NCBI GenBank assembly: GCA_965207455.1
Contig: CBDBMJ010000003.1
Coordinates: 320,001 to 384,000 of the forward strand
DNA from: Bdellovibrionota bacterium
GTDB taxonomy: Bacteria > Bdellovibrionota > UBA1018 > CAIPTA01 > JAALKR01
Reading direction: 5' to 3'
DNA: 64,000 nt
Positions 1 through 9,792 of this stretch are shown piece after piece. Below the pieces are notes generated by a model that saw nothing but the letters and a program-made list of their open reading frames with translations, did not search any database and was not told the DNA's origin. Position numbers and translations under genes: made by a program. Position 1 is the stretch's first letter. Each line of letters starts with the position of its first letter.

Positions 1-558
1 ATAAAAGAGGAATACGCTTCCTATGCTTTCGACGACAACGGTCAGCCTGCGAAAAAAGAATATTTAATCCAAGAAGGAAAACTCCTACGCGGACTAGGTG
101 GACTGGAAAGTCAATCCAGATCAGACGTTCCTGGAGTAGCGAATGCTCGAGCCAGCCTATGGAATCGTCCTCCCATTGACCGTATGGCAAATATCAACCT
201 AGAGCCGGGCACCAGTTCTTATGACAACATTATTAGCGGCATCGAGCACGGTGTAATCATGCACTCCAATTGCTCTTGGTCCATCGATGATTTTCGAAGG
301 AAGTTTCAATTTGGCTGTGAGTACGGCAAGCTTGTTAAAAATGGAAAAGTTGTAAAAACACTACGCAACCCGAACTACCGGGGAATTACCGTTCCTTTTT
401 GGAAGAATCTTAAGAAGGTGGGAAATGAAGAAACTTGGTCCGTTCTTGGAACTCCCTTTTGTGGTAAGGGGGAGCCGAACCAAGTAATTCGAGTGGGCCA
501 CGCCTCTCCTGTATGTTTATTTGAAAATGTGGACGTTTTTGGAGGAGCAGAGAAATGA
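1..558 (+). CDS. tldD: TldD-family metalloprotease, C-terminal part (5' end outside window)
   Basis: Frame 1 open from base 1 (YAFDDNG...RPPIDRMANINLEPG, SWSIDD..RKFQFGCE, CGKGEPNQ..VGHASP), typical TldD C-terminus. Confidence 0.9.
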   Translation: MKEEYASYAFDDNGQPAKKEYLIQEGKLLRGLGGLESQSRSDVPGVANARASLWNRPPIDRMANINLEPGTSSYDNIISGIEHGVIMHSNCSWSIDDFRRKFQFGCEYGKLVKNGKVVKTLRNPNYRGITVPFWKNLKKVGNEETWSVLGTPFCGKGEPNQVIRVGHASPVCLFENVDVFGGAEK

Positions 559-1943
559 CAAAAAAGATGCCAAACAAAATGACAGACGAAACCCCCAACC
601 ACCCCTGCGTAACCAAACCTTATTTTGAGTCTTTAAAGGATTTCATTTTCTCAAAACTCCAGAGCGACGAGTACGTCACTTTAAATCTTAGGGGAGAGAG
701 CACCCATTTTTGTCGCATGAATAATGCAAAGATACGACAAAACGGAACCGTAATGGACCAATCTCTCTCCATACAACTACAAAAAAACAAAGCGGGCGAG
801 CTTCGCACAGCCACAGAAGATTTTTCTCTAAGTAAAAATTTTGACCAAGATTCAGATCAAACTGCCTCAGCTCTGCGCACATTACGAAGCGAAATAGAAA
901 CATTGCCTGCGGACCCTTTTACCAGTTTGCCCGAATCCACCTCCACCAGTGAATCCGTGGAAAGCGGCACCTTGCTTAACCCATCGGACGCTCCTGAAAA
1001 AATTCTATCGAAACACACAGACCTGGACTTAACGGGGATTTACTCCAGTGGAAGCATGGTTCGTGGAACAGCTACCTCAACGGGAGCCATGCATTGGTTT
1101 TCCACAGATTCCTTCCTTCTAGATTATTCTATCTCCGGAGCGGAAGAACGTGCCTATAAAGGTTTTTACGGCGGTAGTTCTTGGGACACAGACGAGTATG
1201 AAAAAGAAATACAAAAAGCCCAAGAGCAACTCAACGCTTTAAAAAAACCTGTGCGTAAAATACCTCCCGGCAACTACCGCACCTACCTTGCCCCCACCGC
1301 GGCTTGGGCATTTTCCCAGACCCTTGCAAGAACATTTAGCGAAGGTAGTATTCGACAAGGCAGCTCACCCCTTCGCCTTGTCCGTAGAGGAGAAAAAAGT
1401 TTTTCCCCTAAACTTACCCTGTTAGAAGACTTTCAATATGGCGATACTCCTCGATTTACTTCAGAGGGAGAACTCTCCCCAGAAAACACGCCTCTTATCG
1501 TCGACGGCAAGCTTAAAAACACCCTTATCAGTAGGCGAACAGCAAAAGAGTATGGCTTGGAAGCCAACGGCGCCTCTTCAAATGAAGAGGTACGTAGCTT
1601 TGTTATTTCCCCAGGAAACTTAGCCGAAGAAAAAGTATTGGATCAACTCCACACCGGTTTATATATTTCTAACTTGCACTACCTCAATTGGAGCGATCAG
1701 AATCAAGGTCGAGTAACAGGCATGACCCGTTTTGCCTGCTTCTGGGTAGAAAACGGAAAGCTCGTGGCCCCCATCGAAAATCTTCGCTGGGACGATACTA
1801 TCTTTCGTTGCTTTGGATCGGAACTGGAAGACTTTACACAAAAAGTCCATGTATTTCCCAACACTGGCTCTTATGGCAACCGCTCTGTGGGAAGTGACCG
1901 CTGCCCAGGCATGCTACTAAAAAGTATGGCGTTCACGCTCTAG
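555..1943 (+). CDS. TldE/PmbA-family protein
   Basis: Overlaps tldD stop; motifs YRTYLAP, GLYISNLHYLNWSD, TGMTRFACFWVENG, NLRWDD. Confidence 0.85.
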   Translation: MTKKMPNKMTDETPNHPCVTKPYFESLKDFIFSKLQSDEYVTLNLRGESTHFCRMNNAKIRQNGTVMDQSLSIQLQKNKAGELRTATEDFSLSKNFDQDSDQTASALRTLRSEIETLPADPFTSLPESTSTSESVESGTLLNPSDAPEKILSKHTDLDLTGIYSSGSMVRGTATSTGAMHWFSTDSFLLDYSISGAEERAYKGFYGGSSWDTDEYEKEIQKAQEQLNALKKPVRKIPPGNYRTYLAPTAAWAFSQTLARTFSEGSIRQGSSPLRLVRRGEKSFSPKLTLLEDFQYGDTPRFTSEGELSPENTPLIVDGKLKNTLISRRTAKEYGLEANGASSNEEVRSFVISPGNLAEEKVLDQLHTGLYISNLHYLNWSDQNQGRVTGMTRFACFWVENGKLVAPIENLRWDDTIFRCFGSELEDFTQKVHVFPNTGSYGNRSVGSDRCPGMLLKSMAFTL

Positions 1944-1993: not shown

Positions 1994-2872
1994 CTATAAA
2001 TAATAAATAGTATAATCATCTAACGCTCGATAACGAATAGTTCCTGCTGTCAGACCGAAGGCGGTTTTATACTTATTTTCAATTTTCTCACCTTCGCTAC
2101 TGGGCATCGATAGATTAAAATTCTTTAAATCATAATATGATTCAACACCGCTCTGCTCACCAACCATTAAATTAACTTGGTGTATATTGGCTCTTCCTCG
2201 TAAAAAAGGAGGGATAAGAATGTCTTTTTTATGATCTGCTAGTGAACCATATATTTTTTGTTCAATTTTCTTGTTTTTCTTGTACAGTGTTAGTCCAATA
2301 AAATTTTTCTTGCTAGAAAATTTATTTAGCTTCTTTTTCAACATCATCTGTGTTGTAGATAATCCTTCAGCATCAGGGTGATAAGTATATACCTTAAAAT
2401 GTTCTTCCTTAAAATCCCATCCTAGACCATAAAAATATTTCAATTCATTTTCCGACAGTTCTAAATTCCGTTTTTTCATAACCTTATGAACAATATCTAA
2501 AATATTTTTCTTGTTCCCCAAGTGTCCGCAGGCAAAGCGAGAACTATTAATCGAGCCTTTATATATCTTATGGCTGTACGTAGCTGACCTCAACCATGGA
2601 GCTTGATGAATATCATAACGCCAGAGAGTCATCTGCTGAGTACAAGCATCAATATATTCTTTTTCTTCTGTTGAAAAAGACTTTTGAAAGTCAAAATAAT
2701 TTTCACAATGCCACTGATAAAGAGTATGCATAATCCGAGAAAAATAACCTGATCGTCCTTTCCCAAAAGAACGATTCAACTGTCTCGATAACGCCATTGG
2801 ATTAAAAAAAATAATCCCCACAATACTTATAAGGATATGCTTTAAAAAATTTCTGCGATTCTGAGTAAACAT
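1994..2872 (-). CDS. Tat-signal protein, putative PagF/LynF/TruF-like (ABBA-fold) prenyltransferase
   Basis: N-terminal NRRNFLK plus hydrophobic stretch; colinear motifs SHKI..SRF, GWDF..FKVY, NFIG..KIY, YYDLKN, C-terminal TIYY. Confidence 0.5.
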   Translation of the reverse strand: MFTQNRRNFLKHILISIVGIIFFNPMALSRQLNRSFGKGRSGYFSRIMHTLYQWHCENYFDFQKSFSTEEKEYIDACTQQMTLWRYDIHQAPWLRSATYSHKIYKGSINSSRFACGHLGNKKNILDIVHKVMKKRNLELSENELKYFYGLGWDFKEEHFKVYTYHPDAEGLSTTQMMLKKKLNKFSSKKNFIGLTLYKKNKKIEQKIYGSLADHKKDILIPPFLRGRANIHQVNLMVGEQSGVESYYDLKNFNLSMPSSEGEKIENKYKTAFGLTAGTIRYRALDDYTIYYL

Positions 2873-2880
2873 TATTAATC

Positions 2881-4500
2881 CTAACGAAATTGAATGGGTC
2901 TAAAAATAGAGTTCACATAAGCATCTTTAATAAAAACAGTTCCTAGCTGGTCAGTTGTATCTACAAAACTCATCATAGTTGATGTATGTATTTTTTCTGG
3001 TATTATATCATAATCAAAGACTAGTGTTCTCTTTGTTGGAGATATTGCAAAAAATGGCTCGAGTTTTCCAAAAGGCAAAACTGAGGGGAATCCTGCAGCT
3101 CGCAACGTACTTAATATGATGTCCTGGGGCGTGGGTCTTGGAGGATCTTGACCATTAAGCATTTTATCCTTTCTGAGTAAAATAACAGGTGCATCAAGAA
3201 TTGCGATCCCATCAGGTGTAAGTCGATCATGTAAATAAGTATAGAATTCTACACTATATAATCTAGAAAGATCATAATTATCAGGAAAAGGAAAATCTAC
3301 AAAAATCAAATCATATTTTTCCTTAGACCTCTTCGCATAAGAAAATGCATCACCAATAATTAAATTTAAACGTTTATCTTTGAAAACATTTTTATTGAGT
3401 TTAGAAAAGGACTCGTGTTCACTGACCATCTTTACAACCATAGGGTCCAATTCAATAAGAGTAATTTCAGGGACATCAAAGAAGTCAAAAAGAGTCCGCG
3501 CCAATAAGCCATCTCCTCCTCCTAAAATAAGAACTCGACGGACAGGTTTATTTTTACGCAAATTGAAGCCGGCCATTACTGCTAGTTCATGATAGATGTG
3601 CCAATCTATTGTAGCAAACTGAGAATGTCGATTCAAATACAATGTTTTTGATGATGGTCGGTCTAGAAAATTCTTGAAAAAACTGTCATTATCAATGATA
3701 TCAATGCTCTGATACATGGATCGAGTGTGGGGGACATTGCCCACACTATGAAGTAATTCCCAAGCAAGAGACCAATCTTGCAAAGAAAAAGGATTAACTC
3801 GAAGATTGAGGTAATGGCGCTTAAGAAAATACTGATGGATCACTGCCGTATATTGACCTACTACAAAAAGAAATGCTGCAATAGCAGGGGCTAGGTAGAG
3901 ATACTTTAATGAAACTGATCTTCTCCATATAAGATAAATGAAAGTAACTAATAATAAATTTAGAGCGCCTATTAATAATGCTATATTTATTCTATGGAAG
4001 TGTGGCTCTAGGAAAAGAGGCAACAAAAGTGCGGCTAAAAGTCCACCGCTGTAACTTATTGCCCAGAAACGCCCTTCATTCCCGGTCTTACGTCTTACAA
4101 TCTGGCTCAGTAGTGTAACTTCGATACCAGATAAAAAGCCGACAAGCATAGTCAAAGGCTGAACAGAAAGTGCTGCAAGATAATTGCCAATTGAAACACT
4201 TCGAGTGATCTTGTAAATCACTCCTAGATCCATTACTCCAATAATAATCAACACGAGACTAGCTGAAATACCTCCCAAGCAAGCAAGTAGTATTTCTAAC
4301 GATAACAATTTCTTTAGTTCTTCCCCTTGCTTTATTCGACGAGAAAACCCTGCGCCAATACCAAGGGACAGCAAATAGCAGCCAAAGGTCAGGCTTTGAC
4401 TGAAAATTTGTTCTTGTACCGCTGCTGATACAGTATGCGCTATTAATAATTGGTATGACATGCTACAAAAGCTTGCGATAAAGACAATCACTAAGATCAA
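2881..4500 (-). CDS. Membrane-anchored spermidine-synthase-like aminopropyltransferase
   Basis: Multi-TM N-terminus, then QF..YHE, VLILGGGDG, IELDP, GDAF, YDLIFVDFP, LYSVEFY. Confidence 0.85.
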   Translation of the reverse strand: MILVIVFIASFCSMSYQLLIAHTVSAAVQEQIFSQSLTFGCYLLSLGIGAGFSRRIKQGEELKKLLSLEILLACLGGISASLVLIIIGVMDLGVIYKITRSVSIGNYLAALSVQPLTMLVGFLSGIEVTLLSQIVRRKTGNEGRFWAISYSGGLLAALLLPLFLEPHFHRINIALLIGALNLLLVTFIYLIWRRSVSLKYLYLAPAIAAFLFVVGQYTAVIHQYFLKRHYLNLRVNPFSLQDWSLAWELLHSVGNVPHTRSMYQSIDIIDNDSFFKNFLDRPSSKTLYLNRHSQFATIDWHIYHELAVMAGFNLRKNKPVRRVLILGGGDGLLARTLFDFFDVPEITLIELDPMVVKMVSEHESFSKLNKNVFKDKRLNLIIGDAFSYAKRSKEKYDLIFVDFPFPDNYDLSRLYSVEFYTYLHDRLTPDGIAILDAPVILLRKDKMLNGQDPPRPTPQDIILSTLRAAGFPSVLPFGKLEPFFAISPTKRTLVFDYDIIPEKIHTSTMMSFVDTTDQLGTVFIKDAYVNSIFRPIQFR

Positions 4501-5153
4501 AATTCACCTCTGATCATGCTGGAGGTTATTTTTCTTTTCATCTTATCATGGCGATTGAAAAATATATCTATAGCAACAAGAGCATTGAGCATTGCTGTGA
4601 AAAATCCTATCCAAAAAATTCCTAAGCTAGGTAAAAGCAGTAAAGGAAATAAAACCGCGGCTAAAAACATTCCCACATAATCATACACTATCAATAATGC
4701 TTTACTTTTTTCCTCTTTCTCAAGATATAATAGTATTGGTAGTTCAAAACCAGAAAAAAATCCACATGCGACTACAGGTAAATAATAAATTGGCAGCAAA
4801 AAGAAAAGTACAGTAGAGGATGCTTTTATTAACTCCTGATCCAAAAAATATAGCAATACCGGGCTAAGCCCTCCTATAAAAATCAGTAGAGATTCAATTT
4901 TAAATAAATAAAGAGAAGGTTTTTTGGAGAGTATAATATAATCGCTCACATAAGCCCCAGCACCAAGTGAAAATGAAAATAATCCAATCACGAGCGAATA
5001 TTGTAGAATGGTGTTACCGAGAAGCGCAGAAAGCAATTGACCCAAGTTTAACTCATAGAGGAAGCTACAAAATGCTAATAGTAAAGAATATAGATATAAG
5101 CGAGAAAACCCAGCATGCCGGTTTGGTCGATTTTTACTAGAGACCACCGACAC
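4497..5153 (-). CDS. Stand-alone membrane domain homologous to the N-terminal TM domain of membrane spermidine synthases
   Basis: FCSFLYEL..GQLLS, SLGAGA, GFFSGFELP, DYVG; parallels FCSMSYQL, SLGIGA, GFLSGIE, SYSG of the next gene; 4-bp overlap. Confidence 0.75.
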   Translation of the reverse strand: MSVVSSKNRPNRHAGFSRLYLYSLLLAFCSFLYELNLGQLLSALLGNTILQYSLVIGLFSFSLGAGAYVSDYIILSKKPSLYLFKIESLLIFIGGLSPVLLYFLDQELIKASSTVLFFLLPIYYLPVVACGFFSGFELPILLYLEKEEKSKALLIVYDYVGMFLAAVLFPLLLLPSLGIFWIGFFTAMLNALVAIDIFFNRHDKMKRKITSSMIRGEF

Positions 5154-5159
5154 ATTTAA

Positions 5160-5723
5160 TTAAATAGATTTTGCTTTTATTTGCATAAAGATTTTTTCAA
5201 AATATTCTTCTTCCTTATCCATAATCTCAGGCGGCATCCGAACAGCCAAAACATAACTTCCCGCACCGTCTTTCCTGATAGCGTGCACAACTACCATTGC
5301 TTGGCTACCATTGCAACCACTGTGAAAAGAAATTTTACTAAAACCTTTAGTATTATAAAGTTCCTTAGTCTGTATTACCACATGCATTAGTGGTTGGGAA
5401 AAAGCTGGCATAAGATGGGGATTGCCTTCCAGCCAGTCCAGCATTGCTTCAAAATTTTTATGATTTTTTTTGATAGCAAGTACTGCAAAATAGCCCCCTT
5501 TTTTAGCGTCTTTTCCAAATAACACCTCAGAGCTGCCGTCCTTGACGGTGCTATAATGAAAGGTTTTTGGTAATTCAACGGATATTTGCTGACGGGCAAG
5601 AAATTTGGAGGTTATGTGCTTAAATTCAGGTTGATGAACCCCCGCACTGAGAGCGGCAGGAAAAAGTATAAAGCATAACAGCACTTCGCATAAAAACATT
5701 TTTTTCAATTTTTTTAAAGTCAT
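5160..5723 (-). CDS. Secreted hypothetical protein, possibly PsbP/DcrB-like fold
   Basis: Signal peptide ending AALSA; SVELPKTF near the start, C-terminal FEKIFMQIK; ATG 5723 chosen over the longer ORF start. Confidence 0.5.
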   Translation of the reverse strand: MTLKKLKKMFLCEVLLCFILFPAALSAGVHQPEFKHITSKFLARQQISVELPKTFHYSTVKDGSSEVLFGKDAKKGGYFAVLAIKKNHKNFEAMLDWLEGNPHLMPAFSQPLMHVVIQTKELYNTKGFSKISFHSGCNGSQAMVVVHAIRKDGAGSYVLAVRMPPEIMDKEEEYFEKIFMQIKAKSI

Positions 5724-5963
5724 ACTCAAAAAATAACAGAAAAAAAAAAACACGCAAGTATTTTTACTTCAATTTTAAGCTTTTATTCAATAATGCTCGT
5801 TTAAAAGAAGTGAATTTTTGATATTAGCAGACGAATCGGGCTGTTTTAATTATAAAACCGTGTTAGCTTAGTGCTTTAGGGGGCTAGGACATAGTAAAAA
5901 AATGGGTCATTTAATTAAATGCACGCCAATTAATTAGAGCATAACCTAACATAATAAAAACCG

Positions 5964-7283
5964 ATGATGCGCATTAAAAGTAAAAAAAATAATAGTGAAT
6001 TCACTATAATAAAAACAACGCCTGCGGTTCCTCGAACGAACCTTGCAGGTAATATTTCTCATGCTGGAGAGCAATACTGCTACAGACACACCAGCGGTAC
6101 TTGGGTAAAACAAAATAACCTATGCTGGAATAAGAATGTACAAAAATTCATTAAAAATTCAACGGGACTTGCGCGATCTTCCTCAGGCATGTCCCTTCTA
6201 TCTGTAATAATGGCTGCAGGATTGCTTGGGCTGATCGCCCTAGGTGCAGCAAAGCTACAGCAAAACATGATATCTGGACAAAAGGATGTGGAAAATAGAT
6301 TTGAAATCAATAAATTATACTCCAATATTCGAGGTGTATTGGGAAATGCAGGGGCATGCGCTCAGACTCTAGGTAGAAATAATAGTAGAACTATAAATAA
6401 TACGCCCATAACCTCAAAGGGGGTTCATGGAACACCGGTTCTTATCGGAGCTATAAAAGATTCAAATGGAAATAAAGTATATGAAATAAATAGGACCTAC
6501 GATGATGTAAAGATAACAAAAATAGAGCTTTCTACATTTACGGTGGATGCCACGCCTTCCCGAGACGTTACAGTTCCTTCTACTACACCAGGTGGAAATC
6601 CTCAGACACTTTCCGTAAACGATGGCAGCACAAAAATAATCCTTTCTTTTACAAGAGCCAGGGCAAATAGTCAAGGTCTTTCTCATTTTAAAACAAGAGA
6701 GATTCAATTAAAGGCTGCTAGATATAATGGTGGAGGTGCGAATGTGGTATTTACTATTCATAGTTGCATCGCTTTATTTGCAGCCGATACTACAGTCCTG
6801 CGAAGAGAAGCACTGGCTGGCGTGAGCTGTACAGGAAATCAAGTCCTTACAGGGTTTGACCAAAGCGGTAATCCGCTCTGCAAGGATTTTGCGGTTCTCA
6901 CTGATACACAATGTGCTCCAGGAGAAGCCGTAACGGGAATTACTCAAGGAGCGGTTATATGTGCGGGTCCGCCACCGCCACCTCCTCCCGCTCCTCTCCC
7001 ACCGCCACCTCCTCCCGCTCCTCTCCCACCGTCCCCCGGTACTTATGTAACTCTCTCCTGTACCCCATCCGGCTACACTTGTGTTGGTAAGTCACGCGTT
7101 AATCCCAGAACCGGTAAGTATTCTTGTCCGTCGGGCTACGCATCCGCAAGAATTGCACCAACTAGAACTAGAACAACCACAGTAGACGAGTCCGTATGCA
7201 CACAGACGGGGCATGGTGGGCAAAATTGCAATACCCAATCAATTACAATAACGCACGTGGAAAGAACATATAAATGCATATAA
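5964..7283 (+). CDS. Pilin-like protein with Cys-rich repeats and Pro-rich linker
   Basis: Prepilin-like SSG/MSLLSVIMAAGLLGLIALG then L...ACAQTL; two C-xxxx-V-TG repeats; start uncertain. Confidence 0.65.
   Translation: MMRIKSKKNNSEFTIIKTTPAVPRTNLAGNISHAGEQYCYRHTSGTWVKQNNLCWNKNVQKFIKNSTGLARSSSGMSLLSVIMAAGLLGLIALGAAKLQQNMISGQKDVENRFEINKLYSNIRGVLGNAGACAQTLGRNNSRTINNTPITSKGVHGTPVLIGAIKDSNGNKVYEINRTYDDVKITKIELSTFTVDATPSRDVTVPSTTPGGNPQTLSVNDGSTKIILSFTRARANSQGLSHFKTREIQLKAARYNGGGANVVFTIHSCIALFAADTTVLRREALAGVSCTGNQVLTGFDQSGNPLCKDFAVLTDTQCAPGEAVTGITQGAVICAGPPPPPPPAPLPPPPPPAPLPPSPGTYVTLSCTPSGYTCVGKSRVNPRTGKYSCPSGYASARIAPTRTRTTTVDESVCTQTGHGGQNCNTQSITITHVERTYKCI
6972..7031 (+). repeat. 27-bp tandem repeat (2.2 copies) encoding PPPPPPAPL
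   Basis: ccaccgccacctcctcccgctcctctc at 6972 and 6999, partial third copy at 7026. Confidence 0.9.
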
Positions 7284-7360: not shown

Positions 7361-9049
7361 ATGAAAAGAAAAATAATTTGTCCAGTAATTTTAGCGGCAT
7401 TTTTACAGATAAACCCTGCTATGGGGGTTAAAAGCGAAGCCAGTTGCCAGTTCGAAAAACAGAAGCGCAAAAAAATATCCTCAAATATCCTTTCACCTCA
7501 AATGAACCTGTGCAATGCCAACTTAAAAAGAAAAAATTTGAGCAGTATAAATTTGAGTAAAGCAAACCTGAGCTATTCCGACCTAACAAACTCAGACCTG
7601 CGCCAAATAAACCTTATTAAAGCAACTCTGCGCAAGACAATACTAAAAAATACCAACTTAAACTACAGCGATCTATCATTCGCCAACCTAACAAACGCAA
7701 ACCTAAAAGGATCCACTATTTCAAGTGCTAGACTGTTTCAAACTATTTTGAATACAGCAGATTTGAGTCATGCCTCTCTTCAGCAATCAAATCTATTCCA
7801 AGCAAAGTTAGTCGGAACAAACTTAAGCAATGCAAATCTAGAAAGAGCAAGCTTAGTTCAAGCGGACTTATCTAAAGCAAACTTATCTTCAGCTAAAATG
7901 AGTCGCACCGACTTTAGAAGAGCGCGCTTAACTGGAGCCAACCTGTCAAATTCAGATATGACACGAGCTAATTTACAAAACGCAAGTATGACTAACGTCA
8001 ATCTTCAAAAAGCAAAGTTGTTGCGAGCGGTCCTTAATGACGCGGACTTATCTGGATCCGATCTTTCTTTCGCAAACTTATACCAAGCAGATTTGCACAG
8101 AACAATTATGAAAAAGGCAAACTTATCCGGGGCTATCCTGATAAAAGCAAATTTACATAACTCCAACCTGAGTAACGCCAATTTAACCAAAGCTCGTTTA
8201 CATAATGCAAATCTAAATGGTGCAAATCTAAGTAACGCAACTCTCACCGCAGCCGAGCTGTTCGGCACTGAATTAAATCACGCCAACCTGACAAATATCA
8301 ATCTTGATAATTCTAAAGCCACGCGTTCTTATTTCCAGAAGTCTAACATCAGCAACGCCAGTCTTAGGTATGCAGATATATCAGAGTCAAATATGTACAA
8401 AGTTAATTTAAAAAATACCGATATGACTGGGGCTAAATTATATTATACTTATTTGGCTCATTCCAACATGGCCGATTCTATTCTGTCTGACGCCAATCTT
8501 TACGCCGCAGACTTAAGTGATGCCTCGATTAAACGAGCCATAATCAAGAATGCCATACTTTCAACAGCAAAACTTACTAATGCAAATTTAGAAGGAGCTG
8601 ATTTAACCAATACGAAGCTGACAAGGACAAATCTTGTCTGGGCCAAAATGAATAGAGCAAATTTAAAAAATGCAGCTTTAAATAGAGCTGATTTACGTAT
8701 GGCTAGCTTAATAGAAGCAGTTCTAATTTCGGCAGATTTAAACAACGCAGACTTGCGTAGAGCAAATTTTAAACAAGCGAACTTATATAAAGCAAATCTA
8801 ACTAAAGCAAAATTAAGTAATATTCACCTAAATAATGCCAATCTTTCTTTAGCAGACTTCACAGACACCACAGGACTGGACGAATTAAAATTATCCCATT
8901 TCAAGGGAATCTGGGCTTATGAAAAAGAGCTTCCAAAGAATCTACCAACCGCTATGATGAAGGAGCTTCGAAAAAATTTAAGGCGGGTACAGTATCAAGG
9001 CTCTAAAAAAATAACGCTTCGTGCGGAAAAAGAGGTAACCCATCGATGA
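7361..9049 (+). CDS. Secreted pentapeptide-repeat protein
   Basis: RBS aggagg; signal peptide; long A(N/D)Lxx repeat tract. Confidence 0.92.
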   Translation: MKRKIICPVILAAFLQINPAMGVKSEASCQFEKQKRKKISSNILSPQMNLCNANLKRKNLSSINLSKANLSYSDLTNSDLRQINLIKATLRKTILKNTNLNYSDLSFANLTNANLKGSTISSARLFQTILNTADLSHASLQQSNLFQAKLVGTNLSNANLERASLVQADLSKANLSSAKMSRTDFRRARLTGANLSNSDMTRANLQNASMTNVNLQKAKLLRAVLNDADLSGSDLSFANLYQADLHRTIMKKANLSGAILIKANLHNSNLSNANLTKARLHNANLNGANLSNATLTAAELFGTELNHANLTNINLDNSKATRSYFQKSNISNASLRYADISESNMYKVNLKNTDMTGAKLYYTYLAHSNMADSILSDANLYAADLSDASIKRAIIKNAILSTAKLTNANLEGADLTNTKLTRTNLVWAKMNRANLKNAALNRADLRMASLIEAVLISADLNNADLRRANFKQANLYKANLTKAKLSNIHLNNANLSLADFTDTTGLDELKLSHFKGIWAYEKELPKNLPTAMMKELRKNLRRVQYQGSKKITLRAEKEVTHR

Positions 9050-9792
9050 ACAATAAAATAATTATAATCACAATACTTTCATATATTTTGCCCCTTGATT
9101 CCAGTTCAAGTGTGAAATCTCCGAATTGCTATATAAATAAAAGTGCGATCCAGACTGTTGGACCAGGAGCTATGCTACATAAAGCTTCTTTATGCGGTGC
9201 TGACTTGAAAAAAACCAATCTAGCTAATTCTGATTTAAGCTATGCAAATCTAAAAAATACAAATTTTTATAGAGCAAATCTACATGCAGCAAATCTATAC
9301 TCAGCAAACTTGGAAAATGCGTCGTTGTCCAAAGCTAGATTATGTAATGCTACGCTAGAAAAAACTTCTCTTTATAAGGCAAATTTAGAATATTCTCGCT
9401 TATATAGGACAAATTTAATGGGAGCAGACCTGCGCAGCGCAAATATAAGGCGTGCTGGACTTATCGAGGCTAATCTTACAAAAGCTAACCTAAGTGGAGC
9501 AGACCTATTCGGTTCAAAACTTTATAAGGCGAATCTTAGAGATGCGAATTTAACTGGAGCAATATTACATAAAGCAGATATGAGATATGCAGACCTTCAT
9601 AATGCAAATCTTAATGGGGCAAACTTATCTTTGGCAGATTTTACTAAAGCTACCGGGCTTGATAAACTTCAAAGTTTTAAGAATGTCTGGGCATACGAAG
9701 GGGCAGAACCCAAAGGACTGCCTCTTACTGTAATGAACGAGTTAAGGAAAAACTTAAAAATTCGTCATAGAAAAAAAAATATAAGACACTAA
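9046..9792 (+). CDS. Secreted pentapeptide-repeat protein (shorter paralog)
   Basis: A(N/D)Lxx repeats; C-terminal cap shared with the upstream gene. Confidence 0.92.
   Translation: MNNKIIIITILSYILPLDSSSSVKSPNCYINKSAIQTVGPGAMLHKASLCGADLKKTNLANSDLSYANLKNTNFYRANLHAANLYSANLENASLSKARLCNATLEKTSLYKANLEYSRLYRTNLMGADLRSANIRRAGLIEANLTKANLSGADLFGSKLYKANLRDANLTGAILHKADMRYADLHNANLNGANLSLADFTKATGLDKLQSFKNVWAYEGAEPKGLPLTVMNELRKNLKIRHRKKNIRH

Follow-up and report, generated by a model that had tools for sequence, protein, structure and literature searches.

The closest described systems to the protein reported here are the cyanobactin F enzymes (KgpF, LimF, DciF, PagF, PatF, and PirF). In PagF, we take Glu51 to be the catalytic residue, and R65, D125, K136, Y186, Y235, and Y290 presumably bind the diphosphate; PatF is a non-catalytic binder or carrier. 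The same barrel occurs in the DMATS-type indole enzymes (CymD, PriB, IptA, and FgaPT2), which are soluble, 340–430 aa long, act on indoles and carry a glutamate on beta-1, as well as in the NphB-type enzymes (NphB, CloQ, EpzP, and AmbP1; PF11468), described as soluble secondary-metabolite enzymes. Reviews describe ABBA/DMATS enzymes as soluble and as part of secondary metabolism (PMC7253389, PMC7973389, PMC13290415, PMC12715784); RiPP tailoring is the other setting in which ABBA prenyltransferases are described. Precedent for N-prenylation of cationic acceptors is given by AgcF, AutF, and DciF, F-family members acting on arginine in peptides, and by Aer3, which acts on agmatine (PMC12371840, PMC9609003) and is UbiA/terpene-synthase-like (PMC12371840); no export and no tie to a spermidine synthase was reported for these four enzymes in the literature searched. 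That literature, accessible in part and mostly without subscription papers and supplements, contained nothing on an exported ABBA enzyme, on the family or operon described below or on prenylated polyamine biosynthesis.

The window, a stretch of 64,000 nucleotides of Bdellovibrionota DNA, contains the gene P0001 (1994..2872, minus strand), a real ORF of 292 aa with an ATG start, assigned to an ABBA/PT-barrel protein on the basis of the ORF, its relatives, an AlphaFold2 model and Foldseek and VIA-align comparisons. A likely ribosome-binding site AGGA (2879..2882, minus strand) lies 6 nt before the start and overlaps the stop codon of the upstream gene; a promoter scan remained at chance level (15 vs 14.3). 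P0001 is the last gene of a tightly packed run on the minus strand. The run begins with a single-anchor, predicted periplasmic protein of 197 aa (5160..5753; phmmer links and a topology heuristic), which has no Pfam or NCBIfam match. It is followed by a six-helix membrane module (4497..5153; NF002956, E 1.7e-32) related to the N-terminal part of PRK03612-type enzymes, and by a membrane-anchored spermidine-synthase-type aminopropyltransferase of 539 aa (2881..4500; PF01564, E 2.6e-25, PRK03612 below cut-off), to which the six-helix module is fused in several orthologous loci. A type IV pilin-like gene of 439 aa (5964..7283, plus strand; weak NF007848 match, relatives matching PF07963 at E 3.3e-7) is divergent from the run. 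The convergent PmbA/TldD-family gene (555..1943, plus strand; PF19289, E 3.1e-30) was treated as lying outside the operon because it was not seen beside relatives of P0001. After the pilin-like gene, the window encodes two consecutive pentapeptide-repeat-like proteins with signal-like N-termini (7361-9792).

P0001 starts with a likely twin-arginine signal peptide (approximately residues 1-29, 2786..2872, minus strand), with a predicted cleavage site, identified with a regular expression of our own, the TatC of the genome and TIGR01409 matches of relatives. The two arginines are residues 6-7 (nt 2852-2857), in the context N-RR-N-F-L-K followed by a hydrophobic stretch. The strict form of the expression (RRxF[LIVM] plus an uncharged 13-mer) matched one of 1,744 genome ORFs of at least 150 aa, namely P0001, whereas a looser rule matched 12 ORFs. 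TatC is encoded in the genome (E 2.7e-64), and TIGR01409 was matched by 7 of 112 family members at E<=0.1. The twin-arginine signal described in the original prediction was thereby borne out, and export of P0001 by Tat is likely from its sequence. Some 30-40 relatives without a signal would fit a non-functional RR motif in a cytoplasmic or membrane-anchored protein. This reading is highly improbable in view of the unique strict match and the TatC gene, of the RR- or KR-type start of 39 of the 110 full-length relatives, and of the Sec-like signals that operon orthologs carry in place of RR.

The AlphaFold2 model of P0001 computed on 112 sequences (pLDDT 92.6, pTM 0.90) shows ten strands in alpha-beta-beta-alpha order, i.e., an ABBA barrel, as had been predicted from the letters of the DNA; with the P0001 sequence alone, pLDDT was 34.8. 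The nearest solved structures are F enzymes in both comparisons. Foldseek gave KgpF as the best match (E 7.6e-9, TMq 0.67, 15% identity), followed by LimF, DciF, PatF, PagF, and PirF, all before any DMATS enzyme, and the top 18 ranks listed were all F enzymes. VIA-align gave Z 18.5 for KgpF (rmsd 3.4, 236 residues aligned), 17.4 for LimF, 17.3 for DciF, 16.8 for PagF, and 15.0 for CymD. P0001 thus shares with the F enzymes a compact ten-stranded barrel of similar size (Z 15.4-18.5) and with the DMATS-type enzymes the same barrel (Z 12-15), whereas the NphB-type enzymes, which have the same fold, score below both (Z 10.7-12.5). In a wide structure search, 19 of 19 chains at Z>=8 were ABBA/DMATS prenyltransferases, and the next fold reached 5.9. 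The K-x-Y pairs on strands 4 and 6 of P0001 resemble what we take to be the metal-independent diphosphate cradle of the DMATS enzymes; the beta-1 glutamate of these enzymes is absent in P0001. PF11991 (DMATS) and PF11468 (NphB type) were not among the matches listed for P0001 or 112 family members (25 of 42 families listed), and none of the families listed was matched by more than 5 members. An invariant Ser-His pair, considered as a mark of a pyruvoyl SAM decarboxylase, was dropped after the fold became known. P0001 likely works like an ABBA prenyltransferase.

The original prediction had further placed P0001 in the PagF/LynF/TruF family. This membership was abandoned, as no profile search gave an F-family match, an outcome that the original prediction itself had named as refuting it: TIGR04445 and PF19156 matched neither P0001 nor any of the 112 family members, they were absent from its genome at E<=1, and none of the 401 genomes of the phylum had a PF19156 match above cut-off. 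Comparison of the P0001 family with the F family by HHalign gave a probability of 0.6%, BLASTP between the two only scattered matches (E>3), and the P0001 family profile matched none of the new PDB entries FjoF, Fl3F, SmiF, and OcyF, whose names hint at current research on F-like enzymes. The F-family set used here consisted of genes gathered by a motif scan, of which 19 were aligned, one being colinear with PagF in the same numbering. By sequence, P0001 is not an F-family member, its identity to F enzymes being 10-15%. The five PagF-like blocks that had led to the assignment are all present in P0001, and the PagF segments quoted for them are those of the real PagF, but the likeness of the blocks does not reach significance when judged by sequence alone. 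The NFIGLTLY block belongs to a strand for which the family fits a register one column over, and the YYDLKN/YYHLKN likeness is partly specific to P0001, since Gln occupies the Y246 position in 67% of the family. Order-matched strand pairs between the P0001 family and PagF nevertheless outperformed permuted orders (p=6e-5, or 7e-4 when odd/even parity was preserved; strand order from the AlphaFold2 model, PagF strand centres set by eye), which argues for a distant homology even though strands 7 and 9 rank poorly. The proposed register fits seven of ten strands at p<=0.023, strands 7 and 9 having no clear fit and strand 6 two tied registers. Reading the donor chain length from the positions of PagF F222 and W271 had been considered and was dropped, since they lie on these two poorly registered strands.

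With residues paired from profiles, not by coordinate superposition, P0001 keeps S53/S100, K55/K102, R65/R112, G123/G151, D125/D153, K136/K160, and Y290/Y290 (PagF/P0001), the last five of which are invariant in the 19 F sequences; Y186/Y208, likewise invariant in the F sequences, is kept in one of the two tied strand-6 registers. Changed are F69 to Gly116, H138 to Tyr162, D174 to Thr, and R288 to Thr288. PagF E184 and D174 have no acidic counterpart in the P0001 profile pairing, and the counterpart of Y235, Y246, is Gln in most relatives. The loss of R288 is not disqualifying, as Asn is found there in KgpF, DciF, and LimF, too. The loss of the catalytic glutamate, noticed in the original prediction, was confirmed: Glu51 corresponds to Thr98 in P0001, and the family has Ser (39%) or Thr (29%) there, unlike the F sequences with Glu in 95% of 19 and Asp in KgpF. 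P0001 resembles AgcF and DciF in having Gly at the PagF Phe69 position, and the beta-2 pattern R-[LF]-A-x-G of its family resembles R-F-G-I-G of DciF; small residues on beta-2 are also present in KgpF, a tryptophan enzyme. Three F-family sequences (L061, L089, and L114) carry Arg at PagF position 51 and Asn at 55 and are possibly inactive PatF-like copies. The location outside a cyanobactin cluster held as well, for the neighbors are other genes and no PatG-type protease gene was found: PF18065 (PatG_C) had no match in the 94.7% complete genome, and no control genome passes the cut-off either.

P0001 had no notable Pfam, NCBIfam or PDB sequence match; PDB sequence searches with P0001 or its family gave nothing at E<0.7, ESM Atlas gave no usable match for P0001, BFVD none at E<=0.001, and a plasmid tblastn search none. 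A signal-less homolog gave feature matches of 0.93 in ESM Atlas, with low recognition, to clusters in which 12% of the members carry PF19156 and 41% carry PF11468. Word-based homolog searches gave just one, two, and three proteins, and the family was revealed by a full HMM scan. The first homolog, of 23% identity, was found in one of 126 other genomes of the class; it carries an RR signal and is preceded by the same gene as P0001. With a four-sequence profile, the family comprises 188 clusters at E<=0.001 and 138 at 1e-10 and occurs in bacteria, protists, and giant viruses, named members including a Riflebacteria protein and a Lacrimia lanifica protein. The family profile matched in 14 of 401 genomes of the phylum, among them the window genome (G000) and G042, and in 13 of 151 genomes of Vulcanimicrobiota (the phylum of G426); in a metagenome locus scan, 0 of 285 candidates were confirmed. 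Heuristic sorting of the 150 clusters listed gave 27 Tat-type, 12 looser RR/KR-type, 31 with a hydrophobic N-terminus and 40 without signal, besides 21 fragments and 19 long proteins. One Vulcanimicrobiota copy is signal-less, given a stop codon 12 nt before its start. N-anchored copies lie on three viral contigs, one of them a GVMAG; the copies on these giant-virus-type contigs (L055:5935-6729, L056:5439-6305, and L057:5920-6723) have intact core residues and a common neighborhood. In three proteins of about 915 aa with signal-like starts (P0082, P0083, and P0137), the family domain is C-terminal; two of them have TPR repeats and one a weak methyltransferase match. P0001 belongs to a family of its own, whose members are exported, anchored in the membrane or without signal.

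Seven core residues predicted from sequence to bind the diphosphate (R112, D153, K160, Y162, K206, Y208, and Y290) were scored in the locus proteins and in 105 full-length relatives, five of the 110 having been left out and five moved to another class by eye. P0001 keeps all seven and the G042-like P0002 six, while P0001 is without the family-conserved R241 and D277. At least six are kept by 31 of 40 Tat-type, 20 of 34 hydrophobic and 27 of 31 signal-less members, as well as by both fusions and both viral proteins. None of the 12 other operon orthologs has six or more, and five keep none or one, in an alignment that is perhaps not reliable for them. P0001 branches in the tree together with Tat-type, signal-less, viral and fused members (support 0.91) and separately from the other operon orthologs.

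The family is mostly equipped with export signals or anchors, linked to aminopropyltransferases and without cyanobactin genes, unlike the F enzymes. An aminopropyltransferase gene is present in all 14 family loci of the phylum search and adjacent in 13. The 12 loci other than those of the window genome and G042 contain an aminopropyltransferase gene (12/12, adjacent in 11), a gene related by phmmer to the 197-aa anchored protein (12/12), an acyltransferase-like membrane gene (12/12), pilin-like genes (11/12), and a SAM decarboxylase gene (2/12). The acyltransferase-like protein had one weak PF01757 match (E 6e-5, below cut-off) and no match in the window genome. Two genomes, G005 and G009, have more divergent family copies with Sec-like signals in the same operon slot; the 175-aa copy of G009 (L020:2184-2711) keeps the N-terminal helices and the last strands and is without the barrel middle. 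In G034 the operon is present and no family match was found in it, so the barrel gene appears dispensable there. Most such operons also encode a conserved membrane protein of about 330-370 aa without Pfam match (L044:5657-6640 and orthologs), a look-alike of which follows the aminopropyltransferase of another cluster type. In G042 (contig C59; L003, approximately 6160-6410), the membrane-module part of the fused aminopropyltransferase contains an in-frame TGA beyond which the frame continues, a pseudogene or an assembly error.

The association extends beyond the phylum. In Vulcanimicrobiota, 9 of 16 family loci had a BpsA- or SpdSyn-type gene in the stretch retrieved, seven of these nine having one common gene block; no aminopropyltransferase gene was in range in the other 7, some of them on short contigs, nor in the three viral loci. 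P0066 and P0128 are direct fusions of a spermidine synthase domain (PF01564) with the barrel. Several signal-less Vulcanimicrobiota members (L137:4955-8157, L145:567-3809, and L132-L136) lie beside a small Gly/Gln-rich ORF, a GNAT acetyltransferase and an UPF0489-like/TPR protein, often with a BpsA-type gene, in a block that looks like a peptide-modification cluster. At L144:8561-10573, a 670-aa fusion of BpsA_C and spermidine synthase lies two genes from a family member, beside a methyltransferase. As loci within each phylum share descent, the family loci with an aminopropyltransferase represent few events, not 23. The association thus comprises three kinds of link to two kinds of aminopropyltransferase in a handful of independent events. 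This repeated link, absent from the original prediction, is the most informative feature of the locus and a new result.

Like PRK03612-type enzymes, the operon aminopropyltransferase combines a seven-helix anchor with a PF01564 domain and GGGDG, but it reaches only 243 of 472 bits (below cut-off), it has DFP[FY]P instead of DFPDP, and its operon contains barrel and pilin-like genes. In the window protein, GGGDG is kept and the acceptor motif is DFPFP in place of DxxDP. G327, G329, D330, and D402-F-P are retained throughout the 18 aligned membrane enzymes. Human spermidine synthase uses Asp173 for catalysis and binds the far (N4) amine of putrescine through Asp176 (PMC13619349). Mapped by motif onto the operon enzymes, the latter position, three residues beyond the catalytic one, holds Phe, Tyr or Leu in 16 of 18 (one paralog has Glu, one was not parsed), and it holds Asp in three membrane controls of another cluster type, in a soluble spermidine synthase and in P0066. 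Since the second Asp of DxxDP is replaced, the operon enzyme likely takes a hydrophobic amine as acceptor, as far as the motif tells. The catalytic domain was predicted outside the cytoplasm in 17 of 18 proteins, including all three controls without nearby barrel gene, by a crude hydropathy and positive-inside heuristic that found just 6 helices in the window protein. The other cluster type (L022:8484-9980, L024:8587-10092, and L026:8170-9747) has the canonical DFPDP, no barrel gene, seven helices and a domain predicted outside. The window genome encodes a SAM decarboxylase (PF01536, E 2.7e-66; G000:C1:970413-971315, L149), a family found in 0 of 14 control genomes, and gave no PF02675 match; it encodes HMG-CoA reductase and gave no IspH match.

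Taken together, the barrel fold, the Tat signal and the repeated adjacency or fusion to aminopropyltransferases point to prenyl transfer to an amine outside the cytoplasm. The lack of Glu at the PagF 51 position and the conserved acids E204 and D248 argue for an amine as acceptor rather than a phenol or indole. We therefore favor, tentatively and with somewhat less than even confidence, a role of P0001 as a periplasmic enzyme that N-prenylates an amine in concert with the aminopropyltransferase. Tat would carry the folded, predicted barrel into the periplasm, where it would ionize an allylic diphosphate held by Arg, Lys, and Tyr residues, and the isoprenyl chain would pass to an amine. The aminopropyltransferase, with its catalytic domain predicted to face outward, would then add an aminopropyl group to this hydrophobic amine; we infer this order of prenylation before aminopropylation. 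The product may be a lipophilic cationic envelope component, either a free lipid-like amine or a group on pilin-like proteins. Both donors, prenyl diphosphate and decarboxylated SAM, originate in the cytoplasm, and the operon membrane proteins might deliver them across the membrane. We know of no route of the donor to the periplasm, which counts against periplasmic prenylation, as do the core loss in other operon orthologs, the missing R241 and D277 of P0001, the truncated G009 copy, the G034 operon without the gene and the Vulcanimicrobiota and viral loci with no aminopropyltransferase gene in range. In its full extent the proposal is on the unlikely side: an exported ABBA prenyltransferase and an outward-facing aminopropyltransferase would together produce a polyamine-type lipid with a prenyl chain or modify type IV pilin-like proteins, and elsewhere, in other bacteria, in protists, and in cells infected by giant viruses, signal-less, anchored and fused forms of the barrel would yield prenylated polyamines.

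The same losses suit a barrel that has become accessory to the aminopropyltransferase, as a non-catalytic periplasmic binder or carrier of polyprenyl diphosphate or of the aminopropylated product. The PagF Glu51 position is lost, the core has decayed in most operon orthologs, which retain the N-terminal helices and the signal, one copy is truncated and one operon is without the gene. As the complete core of P0001 and its retention in signal-less, viral and fused members stand against such a role, and as a core preserved from bacteria to protists and viruses is easier to reconcile with catalysis, we consider it unlikely, though still to be reckoned with. Somewhat different evidence bears on a prenyltransferase acting after export on Tyr, Trp, Arg or Lys of the pilin-like proteins, with signal-less relatives modifying the adjoining small Gly/Gln-rich ORF. 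The closest structural matches of P0001 prenylate peptides and have an open pocket (PMC13290415), pilin-like genes accompany 11 of the 12 further operons, and small ORF, GNAT and UPF0489-like genes lie beside several signal-less members. The acidic residue at the PagF 51 position is absent, however, the spermidine synthase fusions point to a small amine, and no such pilins are in view beside the viral and protist members, so that this is a rather improbable role.

Another chemistry on diphosphates was also weighed, for instance the hydrolysis or ionization of undecaprenyl diphosphate exposed to the periplasm, or the transfer of a group other than an isoprenoid. It would agree with basic and Tyr residues being kept while the acceptor-side residues differ, and undecaprenyl diphosphate is to our knowledge the sole allylic diphosphate on the periplasmic face. 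All solved matches at Z>=8 are prenyltransferase-fold entries, though, and signal-less and viral members would need another substrate, and we give this explanation little credence. Amine prenylation by P0001 together with the aminopropyltransferase remains the reading that we favor, with the reserve expressed above.

P0001 represents a new family and a new setting for a known fold. At least 188 clusters share the predicted ABBA fold without any Pfam or NCBIfam model, and most members carry export signals or anchors. A testable role is offered for membrane-anchored spermidine-synthase-like proteins, and the two spermidine synthase fusions (P0066 and P0128) let the idea be tested directly in one protein. 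If true, the proposal would place prenyl chemistry outside the cytoplasm and would provide a biocatalyst for amine prenylation; for these likely predatory bacteria, it would mean a new class of lipidated polyamines or a modification of pilins.
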